The notes beneath the pieces are model-generated. The model saw only the letters and a program-made list of their open reading frames with translations, did no database searches and was not told the DNA's origin. Source: Heptranchias perlo (lineage: Eukaryota). From it: a stretch of DNA of 64,000 nucleotides. The stretch is from NCBI RefSeq assembly GCF_035084215.1, contig NW_027139453.1:8680001-8744000 (forward strand), read 5' to 3'. The position numbers were made by a program, and so were the translations under genes. This document shows positions 1 to 61,834 of the stretch, in pieces. How positions within the stretch are numbered: the stretch's first letter is position 1; each line of letters opens with the position of its first letter.

Positions 1-100
1 TGGTTTCACCGCCAATCGAACGAATGACCACCAGTTCAACCTGGAGACCTCTGGCCTGCGGGCGAATCAGTCGGCCGTGTATTACTGCGCGTGGATTCTA
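1..100 (+). CDS. TRBV: TCR V segment V1 (TRBV30-like), 3' part only; truncated by window edge
   Basis: Reads GFTANRTNDHQFNLETSGLRANQSAVYYCAWIL, paralogous to the full V exons downstream; followed by an RSS. Confidence 0.85.
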
Positions 101-139
101 CACAGTGACTCAGAGAGATCGAGCAGTTTAACAAAAAAA
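101..139 (+). other. 23-bp spacer RSS of V1
   Basis: CACAGTG (101-107), 23-nt spacer, ACAAAAAAA (131-139; near-consensus nonamer). Confidence 0.9.
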
Positions 140-239
140 CCCAAACTGGCAGGAAACACGCTGGAGACACAAAACCGCGCGTCGCCTCGGCACCTGTTTT
201 TTTTTTTGCAGAGCAAACGTGTATTGGACAAGAAGATGA

Positions 240-690
240 GACGAGTTAGAATGAAGTGAGAGATTAGATATTGAGGCACTGGAGAACGTGCGATAAAGAT
301 TTACCGGCGTGATGCTAGATCTGAGAGGTTAAAACTATCAGGAAAGCTTGAACAGACTGGTGCTAAGTGATGACCTGATAGAGCTCGTTAAAATTATGAA
401 AGGCACTGATAGGGTATACGCAGGGAACATGTTTATACTTGTGGGGGGACCAGAAGTAGCGACCAAAGATATAAAATAGCCATTAATTAATCCAAAGGGA
501 ATTCAGGAGAAACGTCTTTACCCAGAGACTGATTGGAATGTGGATCTCGCCACAAAAGGGAGTGGTTGAGGCGAACAGCATAAATGCTTTTCAACTGAAG
601 GTGGAAGGCAGGAATCGACGGACATGCTGATAGGGTGAAATTAAATAATGTGGGAGGACTCTCGTGTGCAGCTTAAACACAAGCATGTTT
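240..690 (+). mobile_element. Old CR1-like LINE 3' fragment, repeated downstream of each V as part of the duplication unit
   Basis: Paralogous copies encode decayed RFTGMIRELRGYNYQESLNRLGLFSLEKRRLRDDL (CR1 ORF2 C-terminus) at ~1.7, 4.5, 7.4, 8.75, 22.1, 24.9 and 29.1 kb. Confidence 0.75.
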
Positions 691-719
691 ATCTAACGGG
701 CTTGGTTGAGGCCATCGTT

Positions 720-994
720 GTCCAATAGCTACTAGACACATGTGGCAAATTGGGGATCCAGATGTGGTTAATTTCATAACTGATTGTAAATACAAAATAT
801 TTAATTTCCCCATTAGCAACCACATTGATTCTAATTGGTTGAACGGGGAAATTGGGCGTGTCCAACCCTGCGTCACTTGCTTATTCTCTTCATGCTTTCC
901 TGAATGATTTGAAAAGGGCGGGTTGGCTCCTCAAAAGACTCACCGCTGCTGTTCTCGCTCCTTTCCTTATTAAGAGCGAAGCTTAAAGTAAAAG
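720..994 (+). promoter_or_regulatory. V-gene promoter, conserved upstream of each V
   Basis: CCAAT 722-726, palindromic E-box CACATGTG 737-744, RUNX-type TGTGGTT 763-769 and AACCACA 818-824, GC box GGGCGG 916-921, TATA-like TATTAA 968-973; block recurs before the leaders at 3796, 6602, 17251, 24177, 28408. Confidence 0.7.
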
Positions 995-1543
995 ATGAAT
1001 CTGTTCCTGGGCCTGATCATCTTGATTCACCGTAAATTATGTTTTCAAACCATAATCCTTGTTGATAACATTTCATAACGTTTCATTTCTTTATTTATTT
1101 ATTTCTAACTTTCGCTCTATTTGTTCTACACTCTATCTATTTTTATTTCTCTCTTTCTTTCTTTCTCCCTTTCTCTCTTTCTCCCTTTTCCCATTTCCTC
1201 GAATGTCCCTATTTAATGATATCCTCCTCTCCCTTCATCTTTCTCAGACGTGAACTCGCAGACGATCAACCAGACGCCCTTCGCTGTCTCCAAATTCCCT
1301 GAGGACGGAGTGAAACTGAAGTGCACGGTGGAGGGCACCAGTAACCCTGACATGTATTGGTACAGACAATACCCGGGGAAGAAGCCAGAGTTTATGTTTC
1401 ACTCCGGGGGTACCAATCACGTGAGACCAGAGGAGAAGGCGGACGGTTTTACCGCTAAGCGACCAAATGGCGACAAGTTATACCTGGAGAGCTCCAGCCT
1501 GCGGGCGAATCACTCAGCCGTGTATTACTGCGCCTGGAGTCTG
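995..1543 (+). CDS. TRBV: TCR V segment V2 (TRBV30-like), apparently functional; leader exon 995-1031, V exon 1248-1543
   Basis: Leader MNLFLGLIILIH + phase-1 GT..AG intron; V exon VNSQTINQTP..LKCTVEGTSNPDMYWYRQ..SAVYYCAWSL is open, with both Cys and the conserved Trp. Confidence 0.92.
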
Positions 1544-1582
1544 CACAGTGACTCAGAGAGATCGAGGAGTTTAACAAAAACC
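1544..1582 (+). other. 23-bp spacer RSS of V2
   Basis: Consensus CACAGTG + 23 nt + ACAAAAACC. Confidence 0.95.
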
Positions 1583-3795
1583 CCAAAGTGGCAGAAAACA
1601 CGCTTGTGACACAAAAACGCGCGTCGCCTCGACCTGTTGTTTTATTTTGCAGAGCAAACGTGCATTTGAAAGAATATGAGACAAGTTAGAATAAACGTGA
1701 GAAATTAGACATAGAGACACTGGAGAAGGTGCGATATAGATTTACAGGTATGATACGAGAACTGGGAGTTTATAATTATCAGGAAAGCTTGAACAGGCTG
1801 GGGCTCTATTCTTTAGAGAAGCGAAGGCTGAGAGATGGCCTGGTAGAGTTCATTAAAAATATGAAAGGGACTGATAGGGTAGACGAAGAGAACTTGTTTC
1901 CAAATATGGGGGAGACCAGAAGTAGAGACCAAATACGTCATATAGTCATTAATTAATCCAAAGGGATTTAAGGAGAAACTTTTTGACCCAAAGAGATGTT
2001 AGAATGTGGAACTCGCACTAAAAGGAGTAATTGAGGCGAACAGCAAAGATGCATTTAAGGGGAAGTTAGGTAAGTACATGCGAAAGAAAGGAATCGAAGC
2101 ATATGCTTATAGGGTGAGATGAATAATGTGAAGCTTAAACACAAGCATAGTCCTGTTGGGCCGAATGACCTGTTTCTATGCTGTTCATTCTATGTAATTT
2201 GAGTGATGAGCAGGAAAACAAACAGTATGGGAATGATCTGTGAATTTTGGAAAATATTCCTGGGTGAGGGAGGTAGATGTGGGATCAATGCAGGAATAAA
2301 TGTGGGAACGCGATTGGACCTCATGTTCTTTTCTACACTTTGTCGCCGTTCCTGTTGGTCGGTATGTAAAGTCACATAGAGGCCTTTGGGTCTGGAGCAG
2401 CATTGGAGATGCTACAAATCAAGTGTCGAATACAGGCGGGATGGGAGGAAATTGAAAGCGAGGATTGAAGAAATACCGATTCAAAGAAAGTAAAAAGTCT
2501 TTTATATTTTCATCCAAAAACTGTGTTCCCTTTCTCCGAGACGACAGCAGAGGGCGTTCTATGCGCATGAAACACAGCAGCGGCTTGAACATAATTGAAT
2601 TGGAAAAGGAGTCGGCCGCTCAGCCATTCGTGCTTGTCACATAGTCAGAGGCAGAGGACATTCAACCCATCGATCCTGTTAAATAGGAACAGGAGGAGGC
2701 CATTCAATTCCAACGACTGTGTTCCGCAATTCAATTTGTTCATGGCTGATCTGTGCCTCAACTTCATTTCCCCACCATATCCCTCGACACCCTCACCCAG
2801 CAATAATCTATCAATCTCAGTCTTGCAAGCTCCAATTTACACCCCGCGTCCACAGCTTTTTGGGGCAGAAAGTTCCGGATTTCCATTACCCATTGTGTGA
2901 AGAAGTCTTACTGACTTCACCCCTGAACCGCCTTGGTCTAAGTTTAAGGTGACCCCTTCTTCTGGACTCCCCAGTCAGGAAATGGTTTCTTTCTATTTAC
3001 AATTTCAAATCCTTTAATCATCTTAAACACCTCAATTAGATCACTGCTTAATCCTCTATATTCCATGGAAAAGAAGCTAAGTGTATGCCAACTGACCTCA
3101 TAATTTGACCCACGAAGCCACGGTACCATTCTGTTGAATGAGCTGTGCACCCGTTCCAAGGCCAATAGATCCTTCCCCGCTCAGGTGCCCGGATCTGAAG
3201 ACAGCACTCCAGATGAAGTTTGCACAAGGCTGTCTAAAACTTCAGTATAACTAACACCCCTTTGTATTCCAGTCCCCTTGAGATGAAGGCCAACATTCTA
3301 TTGGCCTTTTCACTTATTATATGTATCTGTCCATGAGTTTTAGTGATTTCAATCCCTGGACCCCTCAATTTCGCTGCTCCTCCACAGTTCATATCTTCTC
3401 AGGGAGGAGTGGGGCTGTCAATCAGAGAGGGAGGGCGGGGCGTGTCCAAACCTGCATCTCTTCCAGATACTGTTGTACGATCTGCATCTCGTTATCTAAC
3501 GGTTGGTTTCGGCCAGCGTTGTCCAATAGCCGCTAGCCACACGTGGCAAATTGGGCATCCAGATGTGGTTAATTGCATAACTGATGGTAAATACAAAGTA
3601 AGTAATTTCGTCATTCGGAACCACGTTGATTCTAATTGGCTGAATCGGGAAAGGGGGCGTTTCCAAACCTGCATCACTTCCTTATTCTCGTCATGCTTTC
3701 CTGAATGATTCGAAAAGGGCGGGTTGGCTCCTCACAAGACTCACCACTGCTGTTCTCGCTCCTTTCCTTATTAAGAGTGAAGCTTAAAGTAAAAG

Positions 3796-4348
3796 ATGAA
3801 TCTGTTACTGGGCCTGATCATCTTGATTGACCGCAAATTATTTTTTCAAACGACTATTCTTGTTAATAACAACTATTAACGTTTTCGATCGTTCTATCTT
3901 TACCTCTTTCTTTCATTCTTTCTCCGTTTCGCACATTCACTCCTTTACTCTTTTTCTCTTTTTCCATTTCTCTGTTTCTCTCTTTCTCCCTTTCCACATT
4001 TCCGCGAATGTCCCTATTTAATGATATCCTCCACTCCCCGTCTCTTTCCCAGATGTGAACTCGAAGACGATCAGCCAGATGCCCATCGCTGTCTCCAAAT
4101 TGCCTGGCGAGGGAGTGGAACTGAAGTGCACTATGGAGGGCACCAGTAACCCTGACTTGTAATGGTACAGACAATACCCGGGGAAGGAGCCAGAGTTTAT
4201 ATTTTACTCCGCGGGTACCAATCTCGTGAGTCCAGAGGAGAAGGTGGACGGTTTTACCGCCAAGCGACCAAATGGCAATAAGTTCAACCTGGAGACCTCC
4301 AGCCTGCGGGCGAATCACTCGGACGTTCATTACTGCGCCTGGAGTCTG
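3796..4348 (+). pseudogene. TRBV: TCR V pseudogene V3; leader 3796-3832, V exon 4053-4348
   Basis: GC instead of GT donor at 3833; in-frame TAA at 4160-4162 replacing the Tyr before WYRQ. Confidence 0.9.
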
Positions 4349-4387
4349 CACAGTGACTCAGTGAGTTGGAGCAGTTTAACAAAAACT
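4349..4387 (+). other. 23-bp spacer RSS of V3
   Basis: CACAGTG + 23 nt + ACAAAAACT. Confidence 0.9.
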
Positions 4388-6601: not shown

Positions 6602-7178
6602 ATGAATCTGTTACTGGGCCTGGTCATCTTGATTCACCGTAATTTATTTTTTCAAAACATTATTCTTGTTAATAATATTTATTGACGTTTTCGATCGATT
6701 TTTCTTCCCCTCATTCTTTTCTTGTTTCTCCAATTCGTTCTTTCTCTCCTTTACTCTTTCTATCTTTCTCTATTTCCCTGTTTCTCTCTATCTTTTGTTC
6801 CCTCTTTCTGTCTTCCTCCCTTTCCCTATTTCCCCGAATGTCCCTATTTAATGATATCCATCTCTCCCCGTCTCGTTCACAGACACGAACTCGAAGAGGA
6901 TCCGCCAGACGCCCGCCGCTGTCTCCAGATTTCCTGCGGAGGGAGTGGAACTGAAGTGCACGGTGGAGGGAACCAGTAACCCTGACATGTATTGGTACAG
7001 AAAATACCAGGGGAAGGAACTAGAATTTATGTTTTACTCCACGGGTACCAATCACGTGGATCCAGTGGCGAAGGTGGACGGTTTTACCGCCAAGCGAACG
7101 AATAACTACCAGTTCAAGCTGGAGACTTCCAGCCTGCGGGCGAATCAGTCGGCCGTGTATTACTGCGCCTGGAGTCTG
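6602..7178 (+). CDS. TRBV: TCR V segment V4 (TRBV30-like), apparently functional; leader 6602-6638, V exon 6883-7178
   Basis: Leader MNLLLGLVILIH, GT-AG intron, open exon TNSKRIRQTP..CTVEGTSNPDMYWYRK..SAVYYCAWSL. Confidence 0.9.
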
Positions 7179-7217
7179 CACAGTGACTCACAGAAATCGA
7201 GGAGTTTAACAAAAACC
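7179..7217 (+). other. 23-bp spacer RSS of V4
   Basis: CACAGTG + 23 nt + ACAAAAACC. Confidence 0.95.
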
Positions 7218-7842
7218 CCAAAGTGGGCAGGAAACACCTGTTTGACATAAAGCCGTGGGTCGCTTCGACCTGTTGGTTTCTTTTGCAGAGCAAATGTGTT
7301 TTTGACAAGAAGATGAGACGAGTTTGAATAAGCGTGAGAGATTGGATATAGATGCATTGGAGGGTGTGCATTAAATATTTACAAGAATGATACGAGAACT
7401 GAGAGGTTATAACTATCAGGAAAGTATGAACAGGCGGGGGCTCTTTTCTTTAGAAAAACGAAGGCTGAGAGATGACCTGATAGAGTTCATTAAAATCATG
7501 AAAGGGACTGATAAGGTAGACGTACGGAACATGTTTACACTTGTGGGGGAGACCAGAAGGAGGGACCTTAAATATTTCATAGACATTAATTAATCCAAAT
7601 GGAATCCAGGAGAAACTTCTTTACCCAGAGAGTGGTTAGAATGTGGAACTCGATGCTACAAGTATTAATTGGGGCGAACAGCATAGATGAATTTAAGGGG
7701 AAGGTAGATAAATACATGAGAAAGAAAAGAATAGACGGATATGCTGCTAGGGTGAGATGCTAATAATGTGAGACGAGACTCCTGTACATCATAAACACAA
7801 GCATAGATCAGTTGGGATGAATGGCCTGCTTCTGCGCTGTTC

Positions 7843-11150: not shown

Positions 11151-11361
11151 CCAACAAAAATATATCAATCTCAGCCTTCAAAGCTCCAATTGACTCCCAG
11201 CATCCACGGGCTTTTGGGGGAGAGAGTTGCAGGTTTCCACTACCCATTGTGTAAAGAAGTCTTCCTGGCATCACCTGAATGGCCTTGGTTTAAGTTTAAA
11301 GTTCTGTCGCCTTGTGCTGGACTCCCAAACCAGAGGAAACGCTTTTATTCTATCAATCCAA

Positions 11362-12279
11362 TCCTCTTGTGGGATGTGGGAATTCAGGGCTCCTTCCTGT
11401 ATCCCTGATTCCTTCACCTGCGGGAAGTGTGTCCAGCTGCAGCTATTGTTTGACCGCTTGACGGCTCTGGAGCTGCGGATGGACTCACTTTGGAGCATCC
11501 GCGATGCTGAGAAAGTCGTGGATAGCACGTTCAGTGAGTTGGTCACACCGCAGATAAAAATTACTGAGGGAGATAGTGAATGGGTGACCAACAGACAGAG
11601 GAAGAGTAGGAAGGCAGTGCAGGGGTCCCCTGCGGTCATCTCCCTCCAAAACAGGTATACCGTTTTGGATACTGTTGGCGGAGATGGCTCACCAGGGGAA
11701 GGTGGCAGTGGCCAGGTTCATGGCACCGTGGCTGGCTCTGCTGCACAGGAGGGCAGGAAAAAGAGTGGCAGAGCTATAGTGATAGGGGACTCGATTGTAA
11801 GGGGAATAGACAGGCGTTTCTGCGGACGCAACCGAGACTCCAGGATGGTATGTTGCCTCCCTGGTGCAAGGGTCAAGGATGTCTCGGAGCGGCTGCAGGA
11901 CATTCTGGAGGGGGAGGGTGAACAGCCAGTTGTCGTGGTGCATATAGGCACCAACGACATAGGTAAAAAACAGGATGAGGTCCTACAAGCTGAATTTAGG
12001 GAGTTAGGAGTTAAACTAAAGAGTAGGACCTCAAAGGTAGTAATCTCAGGATTGCTACCAGTGCCACGGATTAGTCAGAGTAGGAATGACAGGATAGCTA
12101 AGATGAATACGTGGCTTGAGAGATGGTGCAAGAGGGAGGGATTCAAATTCCTGGCCCATTGGAACCGGTTCTGGGGGAGGTGGGACCAGTACAAATTGGA
12201 CGGTCTGCATCTGGGCAGGACTGGAACCAATGTCCTAGGGGGAGTGTTTGCTAGTGCTGTTGGGGAGGGTTTAAACTAA
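11362..12279 (+). CDS. CR1 ORF1p (zinc finger/leucine zipper + SGNH esterase), missing about its first 10 codons
   Basis: Motifs IGDS, PGA, HIGTND, DGLHL; near-identical to the ORF at 21050-21997; the ORF-track start at 11227 lies in flanking DNA. Confidence 0.85.
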   Translation, partial: SSCGMWEFRAPSCIPDSFTCGKCVQLQLLFDRLTALELRMDSLWSIRDAEKVVDSTFSELVTPQIKITEGDSEWVTNRQRKSRKAVQGSPAVISLQNRYTVLDTVGGDGSPGEGGSGQVHGTVAGSAAQEGRKKSGRAIVIGDSIVRGIDRRFCGRNRDSRMVCCLPGARVKDVSERLQDILEGEGEQPVVVVHIGTNDIGKKQDEVLQAEFRELGVKLKSRTSKVVISGLLPVPRISQSRNDRIAKMNTWLERWCKREGFKFLAHWNRFWGRWDQYKLDGLHLGRTGTNVLGGVFASAVGEGLN

Positions 12280-12280
12280 T

Positions 12281-15226
12281 GTGCAGGGGGATGGGAAACG
12301 ATGCAGGAAGTCAGTGGGAAATAAAGTGGTGACAGAAACAAAAGGCAGTAAGGGAGAGTGTACAGAACATGACCGGACAGATGGTCTGAGAAAGCAGGGC
12401 AAAGACCAAGGGAAGACTAGATTAAACTGCATTTATTTCAATGCAAGAAGTCTGATGGGCAAGGCAGATGAACTCAGGGCATGGATGGGTACATGGGACT
12501 GGGATGTTATAGCTATTACTGAAACATGGCTAAGGGAGGGGCAGGACTGGCAGCTCAATGTTCCAGGGTACAGATGCTATAGGAAAGATAGAGCAGGAGG
12601 TAAGAGAGGAGGGGGAGTTGCGTTCTTGATTAGGGAGAACATCACGGCAGTAGTGAGAGGGGATATATCCGAGGGTTCGCCCACTGAGTCCATATGGGTA
12701 GAACTGAAAAATAAGAAGGGAGAGATCACTTTGATAGGATTGTACTACAGACCCCCAAATAGTCAACGGGAAATTGAGGAGCAAATATGTAAGGGGATTA
12801 CAGACAGCTGCAAGAAAAATAGGGTGGTAATAGTAGGGGACTTTAACTTTCCCAACATTGACTGGGACAGCCATAGCATTAGGGGCTTGGATGGAGAGAA
12901 ATTTGTTGAGTGTATTCAGGAGGAATTTCTCATTCAGTATGTGGATGGCCCGACTAGAGAGGGGGCAAAACTTGACCTCCTCTTGGGAAATAAGGAAGGG
13001 CAGGTGACAGAAGTGTTAGTGAGGGATCACTTTGGGACCAGTGATCATAATTCCATTAGTTTTAAGATAGCTATGGAGAAGGATAGGTCTGGCCCAAAAG
13101 TTAAAATTCTAAATTGGGGAAAGGCCAATTTTGATGGTATTAGACAGGAACTTTCAGAAGTTGATTGGGAGAGTCTGTTGGCAGGCAAAGGGACGTCTGG
13201 TAAGTGGGAGGCTTTCAAAAGTGTGTTAACCAGGGTTCAGTGTAAGCACATTCCTTATAAAGTGAAGGGCAAGGCTGGTAGAAGTAGGGAACCTTGGATG
13301 ACTCGGGAGATTGAGGCACCAGTCAAAAATAAGAAGGAGGCATATGACATGCATAGGCAGCTGGGATCAAGTGGAACCCTTGAAGAGTATAGAGATTGCC
13401 GGAGTAGAGTTAAGAGAGAAATCAGGAGGGCAAAAGGGGGATATGAGATTGCTTTGGCAGATCAGGCAGAGGTGAATCCAAAGAGCTTCTACAAATACAT
13501 AAAGGGCAAAAGGGTAACTAGGGAGAGAGTAGGGCCTCTTAAGGATCAACAAGGTCATCTATGTGCGGAACCACAAGAGATGGGTGAGATCCTGAATGAA
13601 TATTTCACATCGGTATTTACGGTTGAGAAAGGCATGGATGTTAGGGAACTTGGGGAAATAAATAGTGATGTCTTGAGGAGTGTACATATTACAGAGAGGG
13701 AGGTGCTGGAAGTCTTAACGCGCATCAAGGTAGATAAATCTCCGGGACCTGATGAAATGTATCCCAGGACGTTATGGGAGGTTAGGGAGGAAATTGCGGG
13801 TCCCCTAGCAGAGATATTTGAATCATCCACCGCTACAGGTGAGGTGCCTGAAGATTGGAGGGTAGCAAATGTTGTGCCTTTGTTTAAGAAGGGCGGCAGG
13901 GAAAAGCCTGGGAACTACAGACCAGTGAGCCTGACATCTGTAGTGGGTAAGTTGTTAGAGGGTATTCTGAGGGACAGAATCTACAGGCATTTGGAGAGGC
14001 AGGGACTAATTAGGAACAGTCAGCATGGTTTTGTGAGAGGAAAATCATGTCTCACGAATTTGATTGAGTTTTTTGAAGGGGTAACCAAGAAGATAGATGA
14101 GGGCTGTGCAGTAGACGTGGTCTACATGGACTTCAGCAAAGCATTTGACAAGGTACCGCATGGTAGGTTGTTACATAAGGTTAAATCTCATGGGATCCAA
14201 GGTGAGGTAGCCAATTGGATACAAAATTGGCTTGACGACAGAAGACAGAGGGTGGTTGTCGAGGGTTGTTTTTCAAACTGGATGCCTGTGTCCAGCGGTG
14301 TGCCTCAGGGATCGGTGCTGGGTCCGCTGTTATTTGTTATTTATATTAATGATTTGGATGAGAATTTAGGAGGCATGGTTAGTAAGTTTGCAGATGACAC
14401 CAAGATTGGTGGCATTGTGGACAGTGAAGAAGGTTATCTAGGATTGCAACGGGATCTTGATAAATTGGGCCAGTGGGCCGATGAATGGCAGATGGAGTTT
14501 AATTTAGATAAATGTGAGGTGATGCATTTTGGTAGATCGAATCGGGCCAGGACCTACTCCGCTAATGGTAGGGCGTTGGGGAGAGTTATAGAACAAAGAG
14601 ATCTAGGAGTACAGATTCATAGCTCCTTGAAAGTGGAGTCACAGGTGGATAGGGTGGTGAAGAAGGCATTCAGCATGCTTGGTTTCATTGGTCAGAACAT
14701 TGAATGCAGGAGTTGGGATGTCTTGTTGAAGTTGTACAGGGCATTGGTGAGGCCACACTTGGAGTACTGTGTACAGTTCTGGTCACCCTATTATAGAAAG
14801 GATATTATTAAACCAGAAAGAGTGCAGAAAAGATTTACTCGGATGCTACCGGGACTTGATGGTTTGACTTATCGGGAGAGGTTAGACAGACTGGGACTTT
14901 ATTCCCTGGAGAGTAGGAGGTTAAGGGGTGATCTTATAGAAGTCTATAAAATAATGAGGGGCATAGATAAGGTCGATAGTCAAAATCTTTTCCCAAAGGT
15001 AGGGGAGTCTATAACGAGGGGGCACAGATTTAAGGTGAGAGGGGAGAGATACAAAAGGATCCAGAGGGGCAATTTTTTCACTCAAAGGGTGGTGAGTGTC
15101 TGGAACGAGCTGCCAGAGGCAGTAGTAGAGGCGGGTACAATTTTGTCTTTTAAAAAGCATTTGGACAGTTACATGGGGAAGATGGGTATCGAGGGATATG
15201 GGCCAAGTGCAGGCAATTGGGACTAG
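12281..15226 (+). CDS. CR1 ORF2p: apurinic-type endonuclease + reverse transcriptase (981 codons open)
   Basis: YFNARS, ITETW, GDFN, SDHN (APE); YRPVSLTS, QHGF, DFSKAFDKV, GVPQGSVLGP, FADD (RT). Confidence 0.95.
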   Translation: MQGDGKRCRKSVGNKVVTETKGSKGECTEHDRTDGLRKQGKDQGKTRLNCIYFNARSLMGKADELRAWMGTWDWDVIAITETWLREGQDWQLNVPGYRCYRKDRAGGKRGGGVAFLIRENITAVVRGDISEGSPTESIWVELKNKKGEITLIGLYYRPPNSQREIEEQICKGITDSCKKNRVVIVGDFNFPNIDWDSHSIRGLDGEKFVECIQEEFLIQYVDGPTREGAKLDLLLGNKEGQVTEVLVRDHFGTSDHNSISFKIAMEKDRSGPKVKILNWGKANFDGIRQELSEVDWESLLAGKGTSGKWEAFKSVLTRVQCKHIPYKVKGKAGRSREPWMTREIEAPVKNKKEAYDMHRQLGSSGTLEEYRDCRSRVKREIRRAKGGYEIALADQAEVNPKSFYKYIKGKRVTRERVGPLKDQQGHLCAEPQEMGEILNEYFTSVFTVEKGMDVRELGEINSDVLRSVHITEREVLEVLTRIKVDKSPGPDEMYPRTLWEVREEIAGPLAEIFESSTATGEVPEDWRVANVVPLFKKGGREKPGNYRPVSLTSVVGKLLEGILRDRIYRHLERQGLIRNSQHGFVRGKSCLTNLIEFFEGVTKKIDEGCAVDVVYMDFSKAFDKVPHGRLLHKVKSHGIQGEVANWIQNWLDDRRQRVVVEGCFSNWMPVSSGVPQGSVLGPLLFVIYINDLDENLGGMVSKFADDTKIGGIVDSEEGYLGLQRDLDKLGQWADEWQMEFNLDKCEVMHFGRSNRARTYSANGRALGRVIEQRDLGVQIHSSLKVESQVDRVVKKAFSMLGFIGQNIECRSWDVLLKLYRALVRPHLEYCVQFWSPYYRKDIIKPERVQKRFTRMLPGLDGLTYRERLDRLGLYSLESRRLRGDLIEVYKIMRGIDKVDSQNLFPKVGESITRGHRFKVRGERYKRIQRGNFFTQRVVSVWNELPEAVVEAGTILSFKKHLDSYMGKMGIEGYGPSAGNWD

Positions 15227-16299
15227 CTTAGTGGTATAAACTGGGCGACATGGACATGTTGGGCCGAAGGGCCTGTTTCCATGTTGTAACTTCTATGATT
15301 CTATGATTCTATGAAATAATTTAATCATCTTAAACACCTCAATTAGATCACACTATAATTTTCTATATTCCAGGGAATACAAGGAAAATTTATGCAACTT
15401 GTCCACGTAATTTAACCATCTGAACCCTGATATTATTGCTGTCAATTCTCCCTGCACCCTCTGCAAGGCCAATATATCTGTCTGAGGTGCGGTGCCCAGA
15501 ACTGAACGCAGTTCTCCAGATGGGGTTTCACCAGATCTCTCTATACAACTGGAGTATAACTTCCACCCCTTTGTATTCCAATCCCCTTGAGGAAAAAGCC
15601 AACATTCCATTAGACTTTTCAATTTTATATGTATCTGTCCACGAATTATGGTGATTTCTGTACTTGGATCGCCCAAATCTCTCTGCTCCTCCAAATTTTC
15701 GAGCGACACACCATTTAGAAAATAAACTCCGATTTAGCTTTCTTAGGTCCAAAATGAATGACCTCACACTTTGCCACTTTGAACTCAATCTGCCATAGGT
15801 TTGACACCTTACTTACCCTGTCTATGTCCCCTTTGCAAATTCCTTCTGTCATTTGCTATATTTATAGTCAATCGGAGAGGGAAGGCGTGGCATCTCCAAA
15901 CCTGCATCTCTTCCTAATCCTCCTCATGTTTTCCTGAATGATTTGAAAAGGACGCGTTGTTTCCTCAAAACACTCAACGCTGCTGTTCTCGTTCCTTTCC
16001 TTATTAGGAAAAAAGCTTCAAGTAAAAGAGGTGTGCAACTGGTTCTAATGATCGTATTTCACTGTAAGAATTTTTTTGAAACAATAATTCTTGATATTAA
16101 TATCTATTTCAGTAATCTTTCCTTCTTTCTTTCTTTCTGTTCATTCCTTTCCTTCTTTCTGTCTTCCTTGATTTCCGTCTTTCCTTCATTCTGTTTTTCT
16201 TTCTTTCTATGTTTCTTTCCTTGTTGTTTTCTCTCTTTCCCCCATTCCCCTTCGCCCATGAATGAACCTGCTTTCTGACCTCATCCTCTCCCCATCTCT

Positions 16300-16498
16300 T
16301 TGCCACATTTGAACTTACAGATGATCCGCCAGATTCCCCGCCGCTGTCTTCAAATTTCCTGTGGAGGGGGTGGAACTGCAGTGCACCTTACATGTACTGG
16401 TACTGACAACACCCGTGGAAGGAGCAGCAGTTTATGTATTAATGCGCCTGGAGCGTTCACAGCGAGACAGAGACAGCGGAGGCTCGATGACAAAGAAC
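16300..16498 (+). pseudogene. TRBV: Heavily deleted TCR V pseudogene V5 with degenerate RSS
   Basis: FR1-like ATCCGCCAGA..GTGGAACTGCAGTGCAC, TACATGTACTGGTAC, then a jump to TGTATTAATGCGCCTGGAG; CACAGCG at 16458 with ~25-nt spacer and ACAAAGAAC; decayed leader near 16030-16065. Confidence 0.75.
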
Positions 16499-16584
16499 CC
16501 CAGCTTGGAACTCAGCATGAGGCGCTGTTGTTCCACTGATGGAGGTCAGCCTTCCGCCGCCAGGTGGCGCTGTTGACCCAGTGA

Positions 16585-16650
16585 TGAGGGTTGGCTCAGT
16601 GGTGAGACTCGTTGCATCTCTGGCTGTTGGGTTCAAAGTCCTCAGACTGT
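16585..16650 (+). mobile_element. tRNA-derived SINE head remnant
   Basis: A-box TGGCTCAGTGG and B-box-like GGTTCAAAGTCC; paralog at ~27745-27806. Confidence 0.45.
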
Positions 16651-17250
16651 ATTGTTTGTTTCGAATAAAAACAAGAGCAAAGTGCCGTTAAAGAAACCCA
16701 AGAAATTACTTCCTGTTCCATATAGCTCCACATCCGTTTCCATTCGTGTTCCAACTCATCGATTGATATCTCTGAAATGCAACGGTTCAACTGCAGTTTG
16801 AATGGAGTGAGGCTGTTTGCAATTTCCCCAATCAAGGGTGAGTTTCTGAATCCTCCTGATCGTCATAGACCCAATAATGAGTCCAACCATGCGGTAGAAC
16901 AGATGGTCAGCCACGTGTGACCCAGATATGGTTGTACCATCTGCATCTCGTTATCTAACGGGCTTGGTTTAGCCCAGCGTTGTCCCATAGCCGTTAGCCA
17001 CATGTGGCATAATGGGAATCCAGATGTGGCTCATTGCATAATTGAATGTAAATACAAAATATACCATCTCGTCATTAATAACCACATTGATTCTAATTGG
17101 TTCAACCTGGAAAGGGTGCGTGCCTGCATCACTTCCTTACGCTCTTCCAGTTTTCCTGATTTATTTGAAAATGGCGGGTTGGCTCCTCACGAGACTCACC
17201 ACTGCTGTTCTCGCTCCTTTCCTTATTAAGAGTGAAGCTTAAAGTAAAAG

Positions 17251-17869
17251 ATGAATCTGTTACTGGGCCTGATCATCTTGATTCACCGTAAATGATTTTT
17301 CAAACCATTATTCGTGTTAATGACTTTTAATAATGTTTTATTTCTTTCTTCCTTTCCTGCTTTCTTTCTATCTTTCCCTCTTTCCTTGTTTCTTTCTACG
17401 TTTCCCTCTTTCCTTGTTTCTTTCTATCTTGCCCTGTTTCCTTCTTTCTCTCTTTCCCTTTTTCTCTTCTTCACTCTATCTATATTTATTGCTCTGTTTT
17501 TCTCTTTCTCCCTTTCCCCATTGCCCCGAATGTCCCTATTTAATGATATCCTCCTCTCCCGGTCTCTTTCGCAGACGTGAACTCGAAGAGGATTCACCAG
17601 ACGCCCGTCGATATCTCCACATTTCCTGGGGAGGGAGTGGAACTGAAGTGCACGGTGGAGGTCACCAGTAACTCTAACATATATTGGTACAGACAATACA
17701 GGGGGAAGGAGCCGAGTTGATGTTTTACTCCACAGGTACTAGTATCGTGAGTCCAGAGGGGAAGGTGGATGGATTTACCACCAAGCGACCGAATGAGCAC
17801 CAGTTCAACCTGGAGATATCCAGCCTGCGGGCGAATCACTCGGCTGTGTATTACTGCGCCTGGAGTCTG
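17251..17869 (+). pseudogene. TRBV: TCR V pseudogene V6; leader 17251-17287, V exon 17575-17869
   Basis: 1-nt deletion in FR2 (GAGCCGAGTTGA, exon 295 nt) causes frameshift and stop; heptamer mutated to TACATTT (17870-17876). Confidence 0.9.
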
Positions 17870-18015
17870 TACATTTACTCAGAGAGATCGAGGAGTTCAA
17901 CAAAAAACACAAATTGGCAGGAAACATGCGTGTGACACAAAAGCGCGCGTCGATTTGTCATTTTGTTTCTTTTTTGGAGAGCAAAAATGTATTTGACAAG
18001 AAGATGAGACGAGTT

Positions 18016-21000
18016 CATTCAATCATAGAATCATAGAAGTTACAACATGGAAACAGGCCCTTCGGCCCAACATGTCCATGACGCCCAGTTTATACCACTA
18101 AGCTAGTCACAATTTCCTGCACTTGGCCCATATCCCTCCATACCCATCTTACCCATGTAACTGTCCAAATGCTTTTTAAAAGACAAAATGGTACCCGCCT
18201 CCACTACTGCCTCTGGCAGCTCGTTCCAGACACTCACCACGCTTTGAGTGAAAAAATGCCCCTCTGGACCCTTTTGTATCTCTCCCCTCTCACCTTTAAT
18301 CTATGCCCCCTCGTTAACGACTCCCCTACCTTTGGGAAAAGATTTTGACGATCTACCTTATCTATGCCCCTCATTATTTTATAGACTTCTATAAGATCAC
18401 CCCTTAACCTCCTACTCTCCAGGGAAAAAAGTCCCAGTGTTTCTAATCTCTCCCTATAAGTCAAACCATCAAGTCCCGGTAGCATCCTAGTAAATCTTTT
18501 CTGTACTCTTTCTAGTTTAATAATATCCTTTCTATAATAGGGTGACCAGAACTATACACAGTATTCCAAGTGTGGCCTCACCAATGCCCTGTACAACTTC
18601 AACAAGACATCCCAACTCCTGTATTCAAAGTTCTGACCAATGAAACCAAGCATGCCGAATGCCTTCTTCACCACCCTATCCACCTGTGACTCCACTTTCA
18701 AGGAGCTATGAACCTGTACTCCTAGATCTCTTTGTTCTATAACTCTCCCCAACGCCCTACCATTAACGGAGTAGGTCCTCGCCCGATTCGATCTACCAAA
18801 ATGCATCACATCACATTTATCTAAATTAAACTCCATCTGCCATTCATCGGCCCACTGGCCCAATTTATCAAGTTCCCGTTGCAATCCTAGATAACCTTCT
18901 TCACTGTCCACAATGCCACCAATCTTGGTGTCATCTGCAAACTTACGAACCATGTCTCCTAAATTATCATCCAAATCATTAATATAAAGAACAAATAACA
19001 GCGGACCCAGCACCGATCCCTGAGGCACACCGCTGGACACAGGCATCCAGTTTGAAAAACAACCCTCGACAACCACCCTCTGTCTTCTGTCGTCAAGTCA
19101 ATTTTGTATCCAATTGGCTACCTCACCTTGGATCCCATGAGATTTAACCTGATGTAACAACCTACCATGCGGTACCTTGTCAAAGGCTTTGCTGATGTCC
19201 ATGTGGACCGCGGCTACTGCACAGCCCTCATCTATCTTCTTGGTTACCCCTTCAAAAAACTCAATCAAATTCGTGAGACATGATTTTCCTCTCACAAAAC
19301 CATGCTGACTGTTCCTAATTAGTCCCTGCCTCTCCAAATGCCTGTAGATCCTATCCCTCAGAATACCCTCTAACAACTTACCCACTACAGATGTCAGGCT
19401 CACCGGTCTGTAGTTCCCAGGATTTTCCCTGCCGCCCTTCTTAAACAAAGGCACAACATTTGCTACCCTCCAATCTTCAGGCACCTCACCTGTAGCGGTG
19501 GATGATTCAAATATCTCTGCTTGGGGACCCGCAATTTCCTCCCTAACCTCCCATAACGTCCTGGGATACATTTCATCAGGTCCCGGAAATTTATCTACCT
19601 TGATGCGCGTTAAGACTTCCAGCACCTCCCTCTCTGTAATATGTACACTCCTCAAGACATCACTATTTATTTCCCCAAGTTCACTAACATCCATGCCTTT
19701 CTAAACCGTAAATACCGATGTGAAATATTCATTCAGGATCTCACCCATCTCTTGTGGTTCCGCACATAGATGACCTTGTTGATCCTTAAGAGGTCCTACT
19801 CTCTCCCTAGTTACTCTTTTGCCCTTTATGTATTTGTAGAAGCTCTTTGGATTCTCCTTTGCCTTATCTGCCAAAGCAATCTCATGTCCCCTTTTTGCCC
19901 TCCTGATTTCTCTCTTAACTCCACTCCGGCAATCTCTATACTCTTCAAGGGATCCACTTGACCCCAGCTGCCTATGCATGTCATATGCCTCCTTCTTCTT
20001 TTTGACTCGGGCCTCAATCTCCCGAGTCATCCAAGGTTCCCTACTTCTACCAGCCTTGCCCTTCACTTTATAAGGAATGTGCTTACACTGAACCCTGGTT
20101 AACACACTTTTGAAAGCCTCCCACTTACCAGACGTCCCTTTGCCTGCCAACAGACTCTCCCAATCAACTTCTGAAAGTTCCTGTCCAATACCATCAAAAT
20201 AGACCTTTCCCCAATTTAGAATTTTAACTTTTGGGCCAGACCTATCCTTCTCCATAGCTATCTTAAAACTAATGGAATTATGATCACTGGTCCCACAGTG
20301 ATCCCTCACTAACACTTCTGTCACCTGCCCTTCCTTATTTCCCAAGAGGAGGTCAAGTTTTGCCACCTCTCTAGTCAGGCCATCCACATACTGAATGAGA
20401 AATTCCTCCTGAATACACTCAACAAATTTCTCTCCATCCAAGCCCCTAATGCTATCGCTGTCCCAGTCATCGTTGGGAAAGTTAAAGTCCCCTAATATTA
20501 CCACACTATTTTTCTTGCAGCTGTCTGTAATCTCCTTACATATTTGTTCCTCAATTTCCCGTTGACTATTTGGGAGTCTGTAGTACAATCCTATCAAAGT
20601 GATCTCTCCCTTCTTATTTTGCAGTTCTACCCATATAGACTCAGTGGGCGAACCCTCGGATATATCCCATCTCGCGACTGCCGTGATGTTCTCACTAATC
20701 AAGAACGCAACTCCCCCTCCTCTCTTACATCCTGCTCTATCTTTCATATAGCATCTGTACCTTGGAACATTGAGCTGCCAGTCCTGCCCCTCCCTTAGCC
20801 ATGTTTCAGTAATAGCTATAACATCCCAGTCCCATGTACCCATCCATGCCCTGAGTTCATCTGCCTTGCCCATCAGACTCCTTGCATTGAAATAAATGCA
20901 GTTTAATCTAGACTTCCCTTGGTCTTTGCCCTGCTTTCTCAGACCATTTGTCCGGTCATGTTTTGTACACTCTCCCTTACTGCCTTTTGTTTCTGTCACC

Positions 21001-22080
21001 ACTTTATTTCCCACTGACTTCCTGCATCGGTTCCCATTCCCCTGCCATATTAGTTTAAACCCTCCCCAACAGCCCTAGCAAACACTCCCCCTCGGACATT
21101 GGTTCCAGTCCTGCCCAGATGCAGACCGTCCAATTTGTACTGGTCCCACCTCCCCCAGAACCGCTTCCAATGTCCCAGGAATTTGAATCCCTCCCTCTTG
21201 CACCATCTCCCAAGCCACGTATTCATCCTAGCTATACTGTCATTCCTACTCTGACTAGCCCGTGGCACTGGTAGCAATCCTGAGATTACTACCCTTGACG
21301 TCCTACTCTTTAGTTTAACTCCTAACTCCCTAAATTCAGCTTGTAGGACCTCATCCTGCTTATTACCTATATCGTTGGTGCCTATATGCACCACGACAAC
21401 TGGCTGTTCACCCTCCCCCTCCAGAATGTCCTGCAGCCGCTCCGAGACATCCTTGACCCTTGCACCAGCGAGGCAACATTCCATCCTGGAGTCTCGGTTG
21501 CGTCCGCAGAAACGCTTGTCTATTCCCCTTACATTCGAGTCCCCTATCACTATAGCTCTGCCACTCTTTTTCCTGCCCTCCTGTGCAGCAGAGCCAGCCA
21601 CGGTGCCATGAACCTGGCCGCTGCCACCTTCCACTGGTGAGCCATCTCCCCCAACAGTATCCAAAACGGTATACCTGTTTTGGAGGGAGATGACCGCAGG
21701 GGACCCCTGCACTGCCTTCCTACTCTTCCTCTGTCTGTTGGTCACCCATTCACTATCTCCCCCAGTAATTTTTATCTGCGGTTTGACCAACTCACTGAAC
21801 GTGCTGTCCACGACTTTCTCAGCATCGCGGATGCTCCAAAGTGAGTCCATCCGCAGCTCCAGAGCCGTCAAGCGGTCAAACAATAGCTGCAGCTGGACAC
21901 ACTTCCCGCAGGTGAAGGAATCAGGGATACAGGTAGGATCCCTGAATTCCCACATCCCACAAGAGGAACATGACACGGCTGTGGGATCTCCTGCCATGAC
22001 TTAACCCTTAAGTTAGCTTAACAATAACTACAATGTCAAGAGAAAAAAAAGGAAAGAAAATCTACTTACCACTCCCTTTA
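18016..22080 (-). mobile_element. Near full-length CR1 LINE (intact ORF1, ORF2 with several stops)
   Basis: ORF1 21050-21997; ORF2 pieces 19701-21014, 19098-19694, 18552-19076, 18234-18485; tail at 18020-18040; putative AGTT target duplication 18012-18015 / 22081-22084 relative to empty-site GAGACGAGTTAGAATG. Confidence 0.95.
21050..21997 (-). CDS. CR1 ORF1p (CxxC..CxxC zinc finger, coiled coil, SGNH esterase)
   Basis: ATG start, 315 aa, CSSC..CGKC, IGDS, HIGTND, DGLHL. Confidence 0.9.
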   Translation of the reverse strand: MAGDPTAVSCSSCGMWEFRDPTCIPDSFTCGKCVQLQLLFDRLTALELRMDSLWSIRDAEKVVDSTFSELVKPQIKITGGDSEWVTNRQRKSRKAVQGSPAVISLQNRYTVLDTVGGDGSPVEGGSGQVHGTVAGSAAQEGRKKSGRAIVIGDSNVRGIDKRFCGRNRDSRMECCLAGARVKDVSERLQDILEGEGEQPVVVVHIGTNDIGNKQDEVLQAEFRELGVKLKSRTSRVVISGLLPVPRASQSRNDSIARMNTWLGRWCKREGFKFLGHWKRFWGRWDQYKLDGLHLGRTGTNVRGGVFARAVGEGLN

Positions 22081-24176: not shown

Positions 24177-24745
24177 ATGAATCTGTTACTGGGCCTGATC
24201 ATCTTGATTCACAGTAAATTATTTTTTTCAAACCATTAATCTTGTTAACAACATTTATTAACGTTTTCGATCGTTTTTTTTTCTTGCCCTCATTCTTTGC
24301 TTCTTTCTCCCATTCGCTCATTCTCTCCTTTACTCTTTCTATATTTCTCTGTTTCTCCATTTCTTTCTCATTTTCTCTCTTTCTCCCTTTCCCCATTTTC
24401 CCGAATGTCCCTATTAAATGATATCCTCCTCTCCCTGTCTCTTTCCCAGACGTGAAATCGAAGACGATCTACCAGACACCAGTCGCTGTCTCCAAATTCC
24501 CTGGGGAGGGAGTGGAACTGAAGTGCACGGTGGAGGGCACCAGGAGCGCTTACATGTATTGGTACAGACAATACCCGAGGAAGGAGCCAGAGTTTATGTT
24601 TTACTCGACGGGTACCAATCTTGTGCGTCCAGAGGAGAAGGTGGACGGTTTTACCGCCAAGCGACCGAATGATCACCAGTTAAACCTGAAGGCGTCCAGC
24701 CTGCGGGCGAATCACTCGGCCGTGTATTACTGCGCCTGGAGTCTG
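24177..24745 (+). CDS. TRBV: TCR V segment V7 (TRBV30-like), apparently functional; leader 24177-24213, V exon 24450-24745
   Basis: Leader MNLLLGLIILIH, GT-AG intron, open exon VKSKTIYQTP..CTVEGTRSAYMYWYRQ..YYCAWSL. Confidence 0.92.
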
Positions 24746-24784
24746 CACAGTGGCTCAGAGAGATCGAAGAGTTTAACAAAAACC
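24746..24784 (+). other. 23-bp spacer RSS of V7
   Basis: CACAGTG + 23 nt + ACAAAAACC. Confidence 0.95.
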
Positions 24785-27017
24785 CCAAAGTGGGCAGGAA
24801 ACACGCGTGTGACACAAAACCGCGCATCGCCTCGACCTGTTGTTTTTTTTGCATATCAAACGTGTTTTTATCAGGAAGAGGAGACGAGTTACAATGAAGT
24901 GAGAGATTAGATATGGAGGCACTGGGGAAGATGCAACAAAGATTTTAAGGGTTATACGAGAACTGAGAAGTTATAACTATCAGGAAAGTTTGAACAGGCT
25001 GGGGCTCTTTTCTTGAGAGAAGCGAAGGCTGAGAGATGACCTGATAGAGTTCATTAAAATTTTGAAAGGGACTGATAGGTTAGACATAGGGAACATGTTT
25101 ACCCTTGTGGAGGAGACCAGAAGTAGGGACTTTAAATATTACATAGTCATTCATTAAACCTAATGGAATTCAGCAGAAACTTCTTCACCTACAGAGTGGT
25201 TAGAATGTCGAGCTCGACTCCACATGGAGTAGTTGAGCCGAATAGTGTAGATGCATTTAAGGGGAAGGTAGATAAATACATGAGGAAGAAAGGAGTAGAC
25301 GGATATGCTGATAGGGTGAGATGAAATAATGTGGGAGGATGTCCCTGCGATGCATAAACACAAGCATATACCAGTTGGGCCGAATGGCCTATTTCTATGC
25401 TGTTCATTGTATGTAATTAGAGTGATGAGCACGTACACAAACAGTGTGGGAATAATCTGTGAATTTGGGGAACTGACTCCTGGGTGAGGGAGGTAGATGT
25501 GGGATCAATGCAGGAATAAATGGGGGAACGCGATTGGACCTCATGGTCTTTTCTACACTTTGTCGCTGTTCCTGTTGGCGGGTAAGTAAAGCGAGCGCCC
25601 GATGTCACATCGAGGCCTTCGGGTCTGGTGCAGTATTAGAGATCCGACAAATCATGTGTTAAATACAGGCGGGATGGGCGAAAAGAGAAAGGGAGAAAGT
25701 AATAAAGAAAGGAAGAAAGAAGGAAAGAAAGAATGTGTAATGACTGTTGGTTTTTATCCACTGACATTCTGTTTCCTTTCTGCACGAGGACAGTAGTGGG
25801 CGCTCGAGGATCATGAAACACTTCAGTGCCCTGAAGATGGTGGTGCAGGAAAAGAAGGAGGCCATTCAGCTCCTCAAGCCTGTTGCATAGGAACAAGCGG
25901 AGATAATTCAGACCCTCGACCCTTGTACATAGGTACAGAACGAGTCCATTCAGCCCCTCAATCGTCTTAAATATAAACAGGTGGATGACATTCATTCCAC
26001 AGAGTCTGTTCCGACATTCAATTAGTTCATGGATGATCTGTAGCTCAACTCCATTTAACGCCTTGGTTCCATATTCCTCGATCCCCTGACTCAACAAAAA
26101 TCTATCAATCTCGGTCTACAAAGCTGCAATTGACCCCCAGCATCCACAGGCTTTTTGGGGGAGAGAGTTGCAGATTTCCACTAACCTTTGTGTGAAGAAG
26201 TCTTATTGGCATCACACCAGAACGGCCTTGGTTCAAGTTTAAGGTTCTGTCCCCTTGTGCTGGACTCCCAAACCAGAGGAAATGCTTTTACTTTCTATCT
26301 ACCCAATCAAATCCTTTAATCATCTTAAACACCTCAATTAGATCACCCCTTACTTTTCTATATTCCAGGGAATACAAGCCAAATTTATGCAACTTATCCT
26401 CATAATTTAACCCTATAAACCCTGGTATTATTGCAGTCAATTCGCCCTGGGCTCTCTGCAAGGTCAATATATCTGTCTGAGGTACGGAGCCGAGAACTGA
26501 ACGCGGTTCTCCAGATGGGGTCGAAACATATCTCTCTATAAAACTGGAGCATAACTTCCACCCCTTTGTATTCCAATCCTCTTGAGGAAAAGGCCAACAT
26601 TCCATTCGACTTTTCACTTATTTTATGTATCTTTCCACAGTGATTTCTGTACATGAATCCCCCAAATCTCTCTGCTCCTCCAAATTTGCGAGCTACACAC
26701 CATTTAGTAAATACTCTCCGATTTAGCTTTCTTAAGCCCAAAATGAATGACCTCGCACTTTGCCACTTTGAACTAAATCTGCCACAGTTTTGACAACTCA
26801 CTTTACCTGTCTATGTGCACTTTGCTAATTCCTTCTGCCATTTGCTCTATTTATTGTCAATCGTAGAGGGAAGGCGGGGCGTGTCCAAACCTGCTTCACT
26901 TCCTTATCCTCCTCATGTTTTCCTGAATGATTTCAAAAGAGCAGGTTGGCTCCCCACAAGACTCAACGCTGCTGTTCTCGTTCCTTTCCTTATTAAGAGA
27001 AAAGCTTCAAATAAAAT

Positions 27018-27672
27018 ATGTCTCTGTTACTGGGCCTGATCATCTTATTTCACTGTAAGAGATCTTTTCAAACAATAAGTCTTGATACTAATATTTCTTT
27101 ACGTAATCTTTCCTTCTTTCTTTCTGTTCATTCCTTTTATTCTTTCTGTCTTCTTTTTTTCTGTCTTTCCTTCCATCTGTATTTCTTTTCTTCTTTCTAT
27201 GTTTCTTTCGTTCTTGCTTTCAATCTTTCTCTCTATCTCCCATTCCTTCGCCCATGAATGATCCTGCTTGCTGAAATCTTCCTCTCCCCATCTCTTTGCC
27301 AGATTTGAACTCACAGACGATCCGCCAGATTCCCCGCCTCTGTCCCCAAATTTCCTGGGGAAACTCCTTCTGCCATTTGCTCTATCCATTGTCAATCGGA
27401 GAGGGAAGGCGGGGCGTCTCCAAACCTGCATCACTTCTTTATCATCCTCATGTTTTCCTGAATGAATTGAAAAGAGCGGGTTGGCTCCTCAAAACACTCA
27501 ACGCTGCTGTTCTCGTTCCTTTCCTTATTAAGAGAAAAGCTTCAAGTAAATGATGTCTCTGAATTGAAATGCACCGTGGAGGGAGCCATTACCCCTTACA
27601 TGTAATGGTACTGACAACACCCGTGGAAGGAGCCGCAGTTTATATATTACGGTGCCTGGAGCGCTCACAGCG
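27018..27672 (+). pseudogene. TRBV: Rearranged TCR V pseudogene V8 (leader 27018-27054; V exon split by an insertion and internally deleted)
   Basis: Leader MSLLLGLIILFH+GT; FR1 from 27303; copy of its own promoter at ~27362-27550; then GAATTGAAATGCACCGTGGAGGG..TAATGGTAC..TATTACGGTGCCTGGAG and CACAGCG with no nonamer. Confidence 0.75.
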
Positions 27673-28407
27673 AGACGTACACGGGGGGAGAGGGGGAGGG
27701 GTGGTTGCTCTGTGAAAATGAATGCCAGCTGGTGGCCCACTGATGCGGGTTGGCTCAGTGGTGAGACTCGTTGTCTCTCTGGCTGTTATGTTCAAGGTCC
27801 TCAGACGGTATTGTTGGATTCAAATAAAAATAAGAGAAAAGTGCCGTTAAGCACACCCACGAAATTACTTTCTCTTCCATATAGCTGTATATCTGTGGCC
27901 ATTCGTGTTCCAACTCATCGATTGGTATCTCTGAAATGCAATGTGTTAATTGCAGTCTGAATAGAGTGGGGCCGTTTGCAAATTGCACAATCAAGGGCGA
28001 GTCTTTAAAACACCCTGATCGTCATAGGCCCAATAATGAGCCCAACCATGTGGTAGAACAGGTGATCATCCCCGTTTGACCCAAATATTGTTGTACCATC
28101 TGCAGCTCATTATTTTGGTTTAGCCCCGCGTTGTCCAATAGCCGCTAGCCACATGTGGCAGATTGGGAATCCAGATGTGATTAATTTCCGAACTGATTGC
28201 AAATACAAAATAAGTAATTTCGTCATTAGCAACCACGTTGATTCTAATTGGTTCAACCTGGAAAGCGGGCGTGCCCAACACTGAATCTCTTCCTTGTTCT
28301 CTTCATGTTTTCCTGAATGATTTGAAAAGGGCGGGTTGGCTCCTCACAAGACTCAACGCTGCTGTTCTGGCTCCTTTCCTTATCAAGAGTGACGCTTACG
28401 TAAAGAG

Positions 28408-28961
28408 ATGAATCTGTTACTAGGCCTGATCATCTTGATTCACCGTAAATTATTTTTTTCAAACTATTATTCTTGTTAACAACATTTAATAACGTTTTAT
28501 TTCTTTCTTCCTTTCCTTCTTTCTATCTTTCCCTCGTTCTCTTCTTCACTCTATCTACTTTTATTTCTCTGTTTCTCTCTTCCTCCCTTTCTCTCTTTCT
28601 CCCTTTCCCCATTTCCGCGAATGTCCCTATTTAATGTTATCCTCCTCTCCCCATCTCTTTCGCAGATGTGAACTTGCAGAGTATCCGCCAGACGCCCGCC
28701 ACTGTCGCCAAATTTCCTTGGGAGAGAGTGGAACTGAATTGTGCCCTGGAGGGCACCAGTTACACTTACATGTATTGGTACAGACAAAACCCGGGGAAGG
28801 AGCCAGAGTTAATGTTTTACTCCGTGGCTGCCAATTTCGTGAGTCCAGAGGGGACGGTGGACGGATTTACCGCCAAGCGACCGAATGACAACCAGATCAA
28901 CCTGGAGACCTCTGGCGTGCGGGCGAATCACTCGGCCGTGTATTACTGCGCTTGGAGTCTG
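28408..28961 (+). CDS. TRBV: TCR V segment V9 (TRBV30-like), apparently functional; leader 28408-28444, V exon 28666-28961
   Basis: Leader MNLLLGLIILIH, GT-AG intron, open exon VNLQSIRQTP..CALEGTSYTYMYWYRQ..YYCAWSL. Confidence 0.92.
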
Positions 28962-29000
28962 CACAGTGACTCAGAGAGATCGAGGAGTTCAACAAAAACC
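28962..29000 (+). other. 23-bp spacer RSS of V9
   Basis: CACAGTG + 23 nt + ACAAAAACC. Confidence 0.95.
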
Positions 29001-55661: not shown

Positions 55662-55700
55662 TTCACAAGCTTTCGGAGATTTTCTCCTTCCTCAGGCAAA
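55662..55700 (-). ncRNA. Minimal hammerhead motif (unit 1)
   Basis: UUUGC-CUGAGGA-A-GGAGA(AAA)UCUCC-GAAA-GCUU-GUGAA. Confidence 0.65.
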
Positions 55701-58698: not shown

Positions 58699-58749
58699 TT
58701 GTAAACAATTTTACAACACCAAGTTATAGTCCAGCAATTTTATTTTAAA

Positions 58750-61783: not shown

Positions 61784-61834
61784 TTGTAAACAATTTTACA
61801 ACACCAAGTTATAGTCCAGCAATTTTATTTTAAA

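Follow-up and report, generated by a model that had tools for sequence, protein, structure and literature searches.

In human and mouse, one variable (V) gene in the beta-chain locus for T cell receptors (TCR), TRBV30 or Trbv31, lies in inverted orientation 3' of the constant region gene (C-beta), bears a recombination signal with a 23-bp spacer and is joined by inversion (PMC10772921). We analysed a window of 64,000 nucleotides from the genome of the shark Heptranchias perlo (scaffold C1286, 8,680,001-8,744,000). Its first 29,000 positions hold nine members of one V family, some of them relics and all on the plus strand, which share with TRBV30 and Trbv31 the 23-spacer signal and the inverted position 3' of a C-beta gene; a further member of the family, hereafter the lone V, is found outside the window and has been joined by inversion in one contig. 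The first complementarity-determining region (CDR1) and the terminal motif of human TRBV30 are nearly identical to those of the shark family. The systems differ in that mammals have one such gene whereas the shark has ten on that strand (the nine of the window and the lone V), up to 194 kb from the diversity (D) segment, and in that the shark family also stands in line at the 5' end of the locus and has a second C-beta gene beside the lone V.

The TCR-beta (TRB) locus of the tuatara is similar in having several inverted V genes, five in number, 3' of TRBC; the inverted TRBV genes of amniotes form a clade, and the V genes of squamate TCR-epsilon are sister to inverted TRBV (PMC11754216). The inversion has been traced to amniotes, salmonids and some amphibians and modelled as the translocation of a V family; the available text of that paper contains no shark locus map (PMC11754216). 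Salmonids likewise have an inverted TRB duplication, and the leftover inverted V genes of trout TRB4 are seen as the remnant of a lost locus; the salmonid pairs stand head to head, with central V genes and near-identical C genes (PMC10464911), whereas the two C genes of the shark face each other and are 31% identical. The literature that we searched on shark TCR-beta gave neither a map of a shark TRB locus nor a shark inversion, although closed papers may contain one. The small-spotted catshark reportedly has two TCR-beta genes; a second, diverged C-beta is a point of likeness between sharks, the difference being that no D or joining (J) segment was found for it here.

The V array and its beta locus

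Motif, recombination-signal and BLAST scans of the window bore out an earlier note, made from the letters alone, which had read positions 1-29,000 as a single V family of nine genes or relics; the members form tandem units of about 2.8 kb (Table 1). The sequence of V2 is as that note gave it, and the three CDR1 variants that it listed (TSNPD, TRSAY and TSYTY) are present. Four of the nine members (V2, V4, V7 and V9) are intact and look functional: the frame of each V-set exon is open and includes the conserved Cys-Trp-Cys triad, leader exon and splice sites are in place, and a perfect heptamer and nonamer are set apart by a 23-bp spacer; all four exons matched Pfam V-set above the cut-off. They thus have the leader, V-set exon and 3' signal of a rearranging TCR or immunoglobulin (Ig) V gene, and a V-set exon with a perfect 23-spacer signal directly behind it, four times over, is no accident. 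V1 also has an open frame, with two mismatches in its signal; the leader scan found no leader exon upstream, and the gene is probably non-functional. The proteins of the five open exons (V1, V2, V4, V7 and V9) are 63-76% alike. Heptamers and nonamers show no mismatch in the intact genes (0 of 64 positions) as against 8 of 48 in V1, V3 and V6 (p = 0.0008). The closest named relatives come from bamboo, cat and horn sharks, and a comparison in the Atlas with a bamboo shark homologue led to generic V-set and beta-chain clusters.

The sequence examined comprised 524 kb around the window and 300 kb at a second cluster (4.8-5.0 Mb), of which 464 kb and 200 kb are free of N. A complete minus-strand V-D-J-C locus with its transmembrane (TM) exon lies on the same scaffold (8.856-8.957 Mb), with D, at least seven J segments, C and the TM exon at 147-195 kb from the V genes of the window. 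The latter stand 3' of this main C-beta, on the opposite strand and 167-194 kb from D, and the 5'-most in-line V genes of the locus belong to the same family (eight members, five open and three relics). In a tree of C domains with 14 rows, built without two Ig light chain proteins and two loci (one on contig C3, one on C240), the main C, a bamboo shark C and mammalian TRBC are united in one clade, apart from the Ig C domains (99/98). The layout from the lone V to the in-line V array is repeated by a second copy of the locus at 4.86-4.98 Mb, whose C-beta protein is identical. This near-complete copy (C1286:4856259-4978690), about 4 Mb off, is mostly 85-99% alike, and its D sequence is changed.

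Direct evidence of inversion comes from contig C885 (24,971 bp), which consists of two arms of the main locus at 100% identity, one of them flipped (10,155 and 14,818 bp): its positions 1-10,155 are C1286 8,826,384-8,816,230 reversed, and its positions 10,154-24,971 are C1286 8,875,570-8,890,387. At the junction, the 5' 12-signal of D-beta meets the 23-signal of the lone V, heptamer to heptamer and with no loss. The junction is a signal joint, kept after a V-to-D rearrangement by inversion, and shows that such joining takes place in this animal, for the lone V. It is the sole such joint in the assembly, and the family member rearranged to D-beta is the lone V, not a gene of the window. The contig likely derives from T-cell DNA in the tissue that was sequenced, less likely from an allele joined in the germline; contigs of this type are lymphocyte DNA or joined alleles, not ordinary germline. 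A search with a pattern for V 3' ends matched C1286 only, at 16 places. Given the locus context, the D-beta signal joint and the matches to PDB chains described below, the pieces in the window are TCR-beta V segments, as the earlier note had it.

In our reading, the nine pieces are TCR-beta V segments whose lineage is likely that of TRBV30; they stand inverted 3' of a complete D-J-C locus, and RAG likely joins the four intact ones to its D through inversion, as was demonstrably the case for the lone V. We put the probability of this reading at roughly 0.6. Use of the window V genes themselves is what we infer. For V2, V4, V7 or V9, RAG would bring the 23-signal together with the 5' 12-signal of D-beta across 167-194 kb; the intervening DNA would flip, and V-D-J would then read into the main C-beta and be spliced to it, while the second C would flip along with the J segments and remain antisense to them. 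In mouse Tcrb, long-range joining by inversion occurs via diffusion and has a rate similar to that of deletion (PMC10772921). If the reading is true, cartilaginous fish already had inverted 3' TRBV genes and inversional V-to-D joining, the inversion being seen directly in DNA, and the inverted gene of the mammalian beta locus, an oddity noted in textbooks, gains a testable origin. An inverted V array so far from D also offers a natural test of diffusion versus scanning in RAG synapsis outside mammals.

Relationship with TRBV30 and the second C-beta gene

The best single-domain PDB matches of V2, and of its first 52 residues, are the Mel5 and 5xov beta chains; that of Mel5 is TRBV30 (PMC5887915). 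When a profile of 15 family members was used, TRBV30 chains were the only rows with one stretch passing 1e-17 among the best 60 of 86 PDB matches, and the human motif given in the earlier note agrees with the PDB chains. As a control, the nearest other (sister) shark V family had no TRBV30 chain in its top 60 PDB rows. A turtle V matched the same TRBV30 chains at 89.6 bits, and a full-length tree of 55 rows grouped the window family with this turtle TRBV30 orthologue (96/84). The tree was built without one of 20 outgroup loci and P0003, and has no mammalian V rows because near-length protein searches, which gave no match for V2 or for the second C, supplied none; its outgroup loci are taken, from their motifs, to be alpha/delta, gamma or Ig. 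Orthology with TRBV30 is likely on the strength of the PDB best matches, the full-length tree and the shared inverted 3' position. The same evidence favours the idea of the earlier note that the TRBV30 lineage predates the split of sharks and bony fish, with the reservation that the support from the tree hangs on CDR1 and the terminal residues.

That note had also taken the conserved CDR1 as a possible sign of a conserved ligand, which the sequences do not support. The five-residue CDR1 core is kept in only 8 of the 16 family members with an open frame, CDR1 is more variable than the framework (pairwise difference 0.39 versus 0.23 among the 16 open exons), and three of the V genes examined from another locus, on contig C240 and picked for their likeness to V2, bear a similar SNP-D/Y-L motif. 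Selection was read from pairwise counts: the ratio of nonsynonymous to synonymous differences (pN/pS) in the 16 open exons was 0.60 for the framework, 1.00 for CDR1 and 0.75 for CDR1 and CDR2 together, and in the five open exons of the window it was 1.13 for CDR1 and CDR2 and 0.78 for the framework. The excess in CDR1 and CDR2, which would point to diversifying selection on these regions, is not significant (permutation p = 0.07).

At 4.6 kb behind the lone V lies a second C1 exon, followed by a partial C1 copy and by a TM exon at 8,826,030 on the plus strand; the frames of the C exon and the TM exon are open in both copies of the locus. Orthologues of this second C in Scyliorhinus torazame and the whale shark are 59% and 52% identical, respectively, and have beta-type TM segments; the TM exon found here has Asp at the position of a conserved Tyr in catshark and whale shark. 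In the tree of C domains, the shark main C, the shark second C and mammalian TRBC are three branches, their order unresolved, of the one clade held against Ig C domains. A pre-TCR-alpha-like protein and an Ig light chain were considered for the second C and ruled out by the shark orthologues with their beta-type TM segments and by the tree. In the gap-free sequence from the window to the second C, and in the other copy, we found no J with a signal on the plus strand and no convincing D there, one poor D-like match lying at 8,781,831; the scans do recover the D and J of the minus strand. Neither C gene yielded a short hinge exon in a search that, having failed at both, must be insensitive. An automatic catshark gene model, P0046, strings a V of the window family, a J and the orthologous second C in one orientation, and shows the co-orientation of these three only.

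It is tempting, if a long shot, to regard the lone backward TRBV30 of mammals as all that remains there of a second, ancient TCR-beta locus, which stood tail to tail with the first. Sharks would keep its C gene; here, its D and J would have been lost and its V genes captured by the opposite locus via inversion, and squamate TCR-epsilon could share the origin.

Contrary evidence and other explanations

A number of results count against joining of the window V genes by inversion or against their TRBV30 ancestry, and they are weighed here together with the explanations that they would suit. Five of the nine members are broken, no coding or signal joint with a window V was found in the assembly, and the framework pN/pS of 0.78 points to no more than weak constraint on the window V genes. 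In addition, the heptamers and nonamers of the intact genes are not significantly better preserved than their own spacers (p = 0.08), and selection on the signals could be older than the duplication. The broken members, the pN/pS value and the missing joint are what an orphon would show, that is, a stranded inverted duplicate, decaying and too far from the recombination centre, with rearrangement confined to the lone V near C; the loss of the V1 leader at the edge of the block and the abrupt stop of the block at 31,242 agree with it. We nevertheless hold an orphon to be unlikely: four members retain leader, splice sites, open frame and perfect signals despite a difference of about 10% in the exon from their nearest paralogues, and the main locus, too, has relics in its in-line array (three of eight). 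Between the window and D-J-C lies a 14-kb satellite, the position and orientation of the array rest on the assembly, and a misjoin that flipped the window is possible. In that case, what was wrongly joined or flipped at a satellite would be the in-line 5' end of another haplotype or of another copy of the locus. Long satellites on both sides speak for such an artefact, as does the upstream flank of the array, which is 87-96% alike to that of the 4.9-Mb locus copy in inverted orientation; however, the highest likeness of the window V exons to another copy is 87-91%, which is low for alleles, and the region has no N gap, so that we consider the artefact very unlikely.

The strand that the array shares with the second C-beta, whose C and TM exons are open in both copies, and the catshark model P0046 would also accord with a V region of a second locus, joined by ordinary deletion to D and J segments which belong to the diverged C-beta of that strand and are absent from the assembly or too diverged to be recognised. 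This is highly improbable, given the failure to find a J with a signal or a convincing D on the plus strand of gap-free sequence in either copy, the independent confirmation by C885 of the sequence from the lone V through the second C, and the Asp in the TM exon where catshark and whale shark have Tyr. As to ancestry, the C-terminal half of V2 has no TRBV30 chain in its top 60 PDB rows, and the turtle V leaves the family in a tree from which CDR1 and the last residues were removed (40 rows, 15 near-redundant ones having been dropped). The likeness to TRBV30 might therefore reflect convergence or a retained ancestral CDR1 motif instead of orthology. The framework identity of the turtle V to the family (32-40%, versus 34% for another turtle TRBV and 36% for another shark family), the CDR1 motifs of the C240 V genes, and the choice of P0006 itself by likeness to V2 all fit with this. 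The grouping in the full-length tree, the result of the PDB profile and the inverted place 3' of C, which both copies of the locus share, argue otherwise, and we think this explanation doubtful, though it deserves to be kept in mind; even in the 40-row tree, the turtle V and the window family fall in one TRBV-containing clade (95/94).

Origin of the array, its flanks and further TCR-beta sequences

To judge by sequence comparison, the array seems to be a duplicate of the 5' end of a beta locus, inverted and truncated, namely of its 5' V block cut before the next V family. In the tree the partners of V2, V3 and V7 are, in order, three in-line V genes, and the flanks match, so that a duplicate of this kind fits. 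The likeness of the downstream flank to the in-line arrays (Table 1) stops at 31,242, where reverse-transcriptase elements start, 1.6 kb short of the next V family; this is the apparent end of the duplicated block. The V9 exon pairs in the tree with the two lone inverted V genes. The amplification claimed in the earlier note is not peculiar to the window, as the family is expanded also in two other arrays of the scaffold and in the bamboo shark.

Table 1. Features of the window (window positions) and of the surrounding beta locus (positions preceded by C1286)
Feature	Position	Strand	Description
V1	1..139	+	3' third of V exon, ends 100; exon start about 200 bp before the window; 23-spacer signal 101-139
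V2	995..1582	+	Leader 995-1031, V exon 1248-1543, perfect 23-spacer signal 1544-1582; intact
V3 pseudogene	3796..4387	+	Exon 4053-4348, GC leader donor, TAA at 4160, signal 4349-4387 with one nonamer mismatch
V4	6602..7217	+	Leader 6602, exon 6883-7178, perfect 23-spacer signal 7179-7217; intact
LINE-type retroelement pair, inverted	11362..21967	.	Copies 11362-15331 and 17998-21967, 96.7% alike; bracket relic 5 and V6
Relic 5	15965..16490 (approx.)	+	Leader decayed; V internally deleted, stops
V6 pseudogene	17251..17908	+	Leader 17251, exon 17575-17869, frameshift near 17715, heptamer broken
V7	24177..24784	+	Leader 24177, exon 24450-24745, perfect 23-spacer signal 24746-24784; intact
Relic 8	26955..27690 (approx.)	+	Two leader-like pieces, V fragments with stops
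V9	28408..29000	+	Leader 28408, exon 28666-28961, perfect 23-spacer signal 28962-29000; intact
Flank	29001..31242	+	85% like the sequence that follows the last member of the family in both minus-strand in-line arrays
Lone V	C1286 8,815,938	+	Same family; 59 kb from D
Second C-beta gene	C1286:8820850-8826143; copy 4863374-4868557	+	C1 exon, partial duplicate exon, TM exon
Main C-beta exon	C1286 8,859,894	-	Locus scan; TM exon 8,856,290
Main J-beta, at least 7	Between D and C of the minus-strand locus	-	Locus scan
Main D-beta	C1286 8,875,557	-	Locus scan
Main TRB V genes	C1286 8,884,962-8,956,952	-	Locus scan

Positions 1-9000 of the window were compared with four runs of one sample, none of them recorded as RNA. 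A 112-base contig covers V2 with five differences and is not assignable to a copy, and a 47-base piece lies at the conserved end of V4; no contig has a junction, and the second C-beta exon had no match in the same runs. These matches speak neither for nor against expression.

An EPH receptor gene forms the 3' flank of the TRB locus elsewhere (PMC12529555); none of 14 Eph ligand-binding exons was found on C1286, which may be an unplaced scaffold. Beta-type sequences are also present on other contigs. C94 (9459-27862) holds a third D-J-C-TM cluster, with four J motifs and a C that is 52% identical to the main C-beta; no V was found in this 63-kb contig. On the minus strand of C35 (15475219-15488902) lies an orphan mini-locus made up of a single TRBV-like V whose end resembles a signal, a D-like piece bearing a 12-signal, and one each of a J motif and a C1 exon; C35 also holds an Eph receptor exon, at a distance of 2.8 Mb.

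The 2.7-kb block between the two LINE (long interspersed nuclear element) copies, with relic 5 and V6, resembles the unit of relic 8 and V9. Beyond 31 kb, scans that recover the minus-strand D and J found no D, J or C in the window, and the longest open frames tested are reverse transcriptases. Copies of reverse-transcriptase elements, some inverted and some in tandem, occupy positions 31237-36482 and 55608-62874; the two tandem ones are 99.8% alike and have open frames of 918 codons, and are therefore recent.

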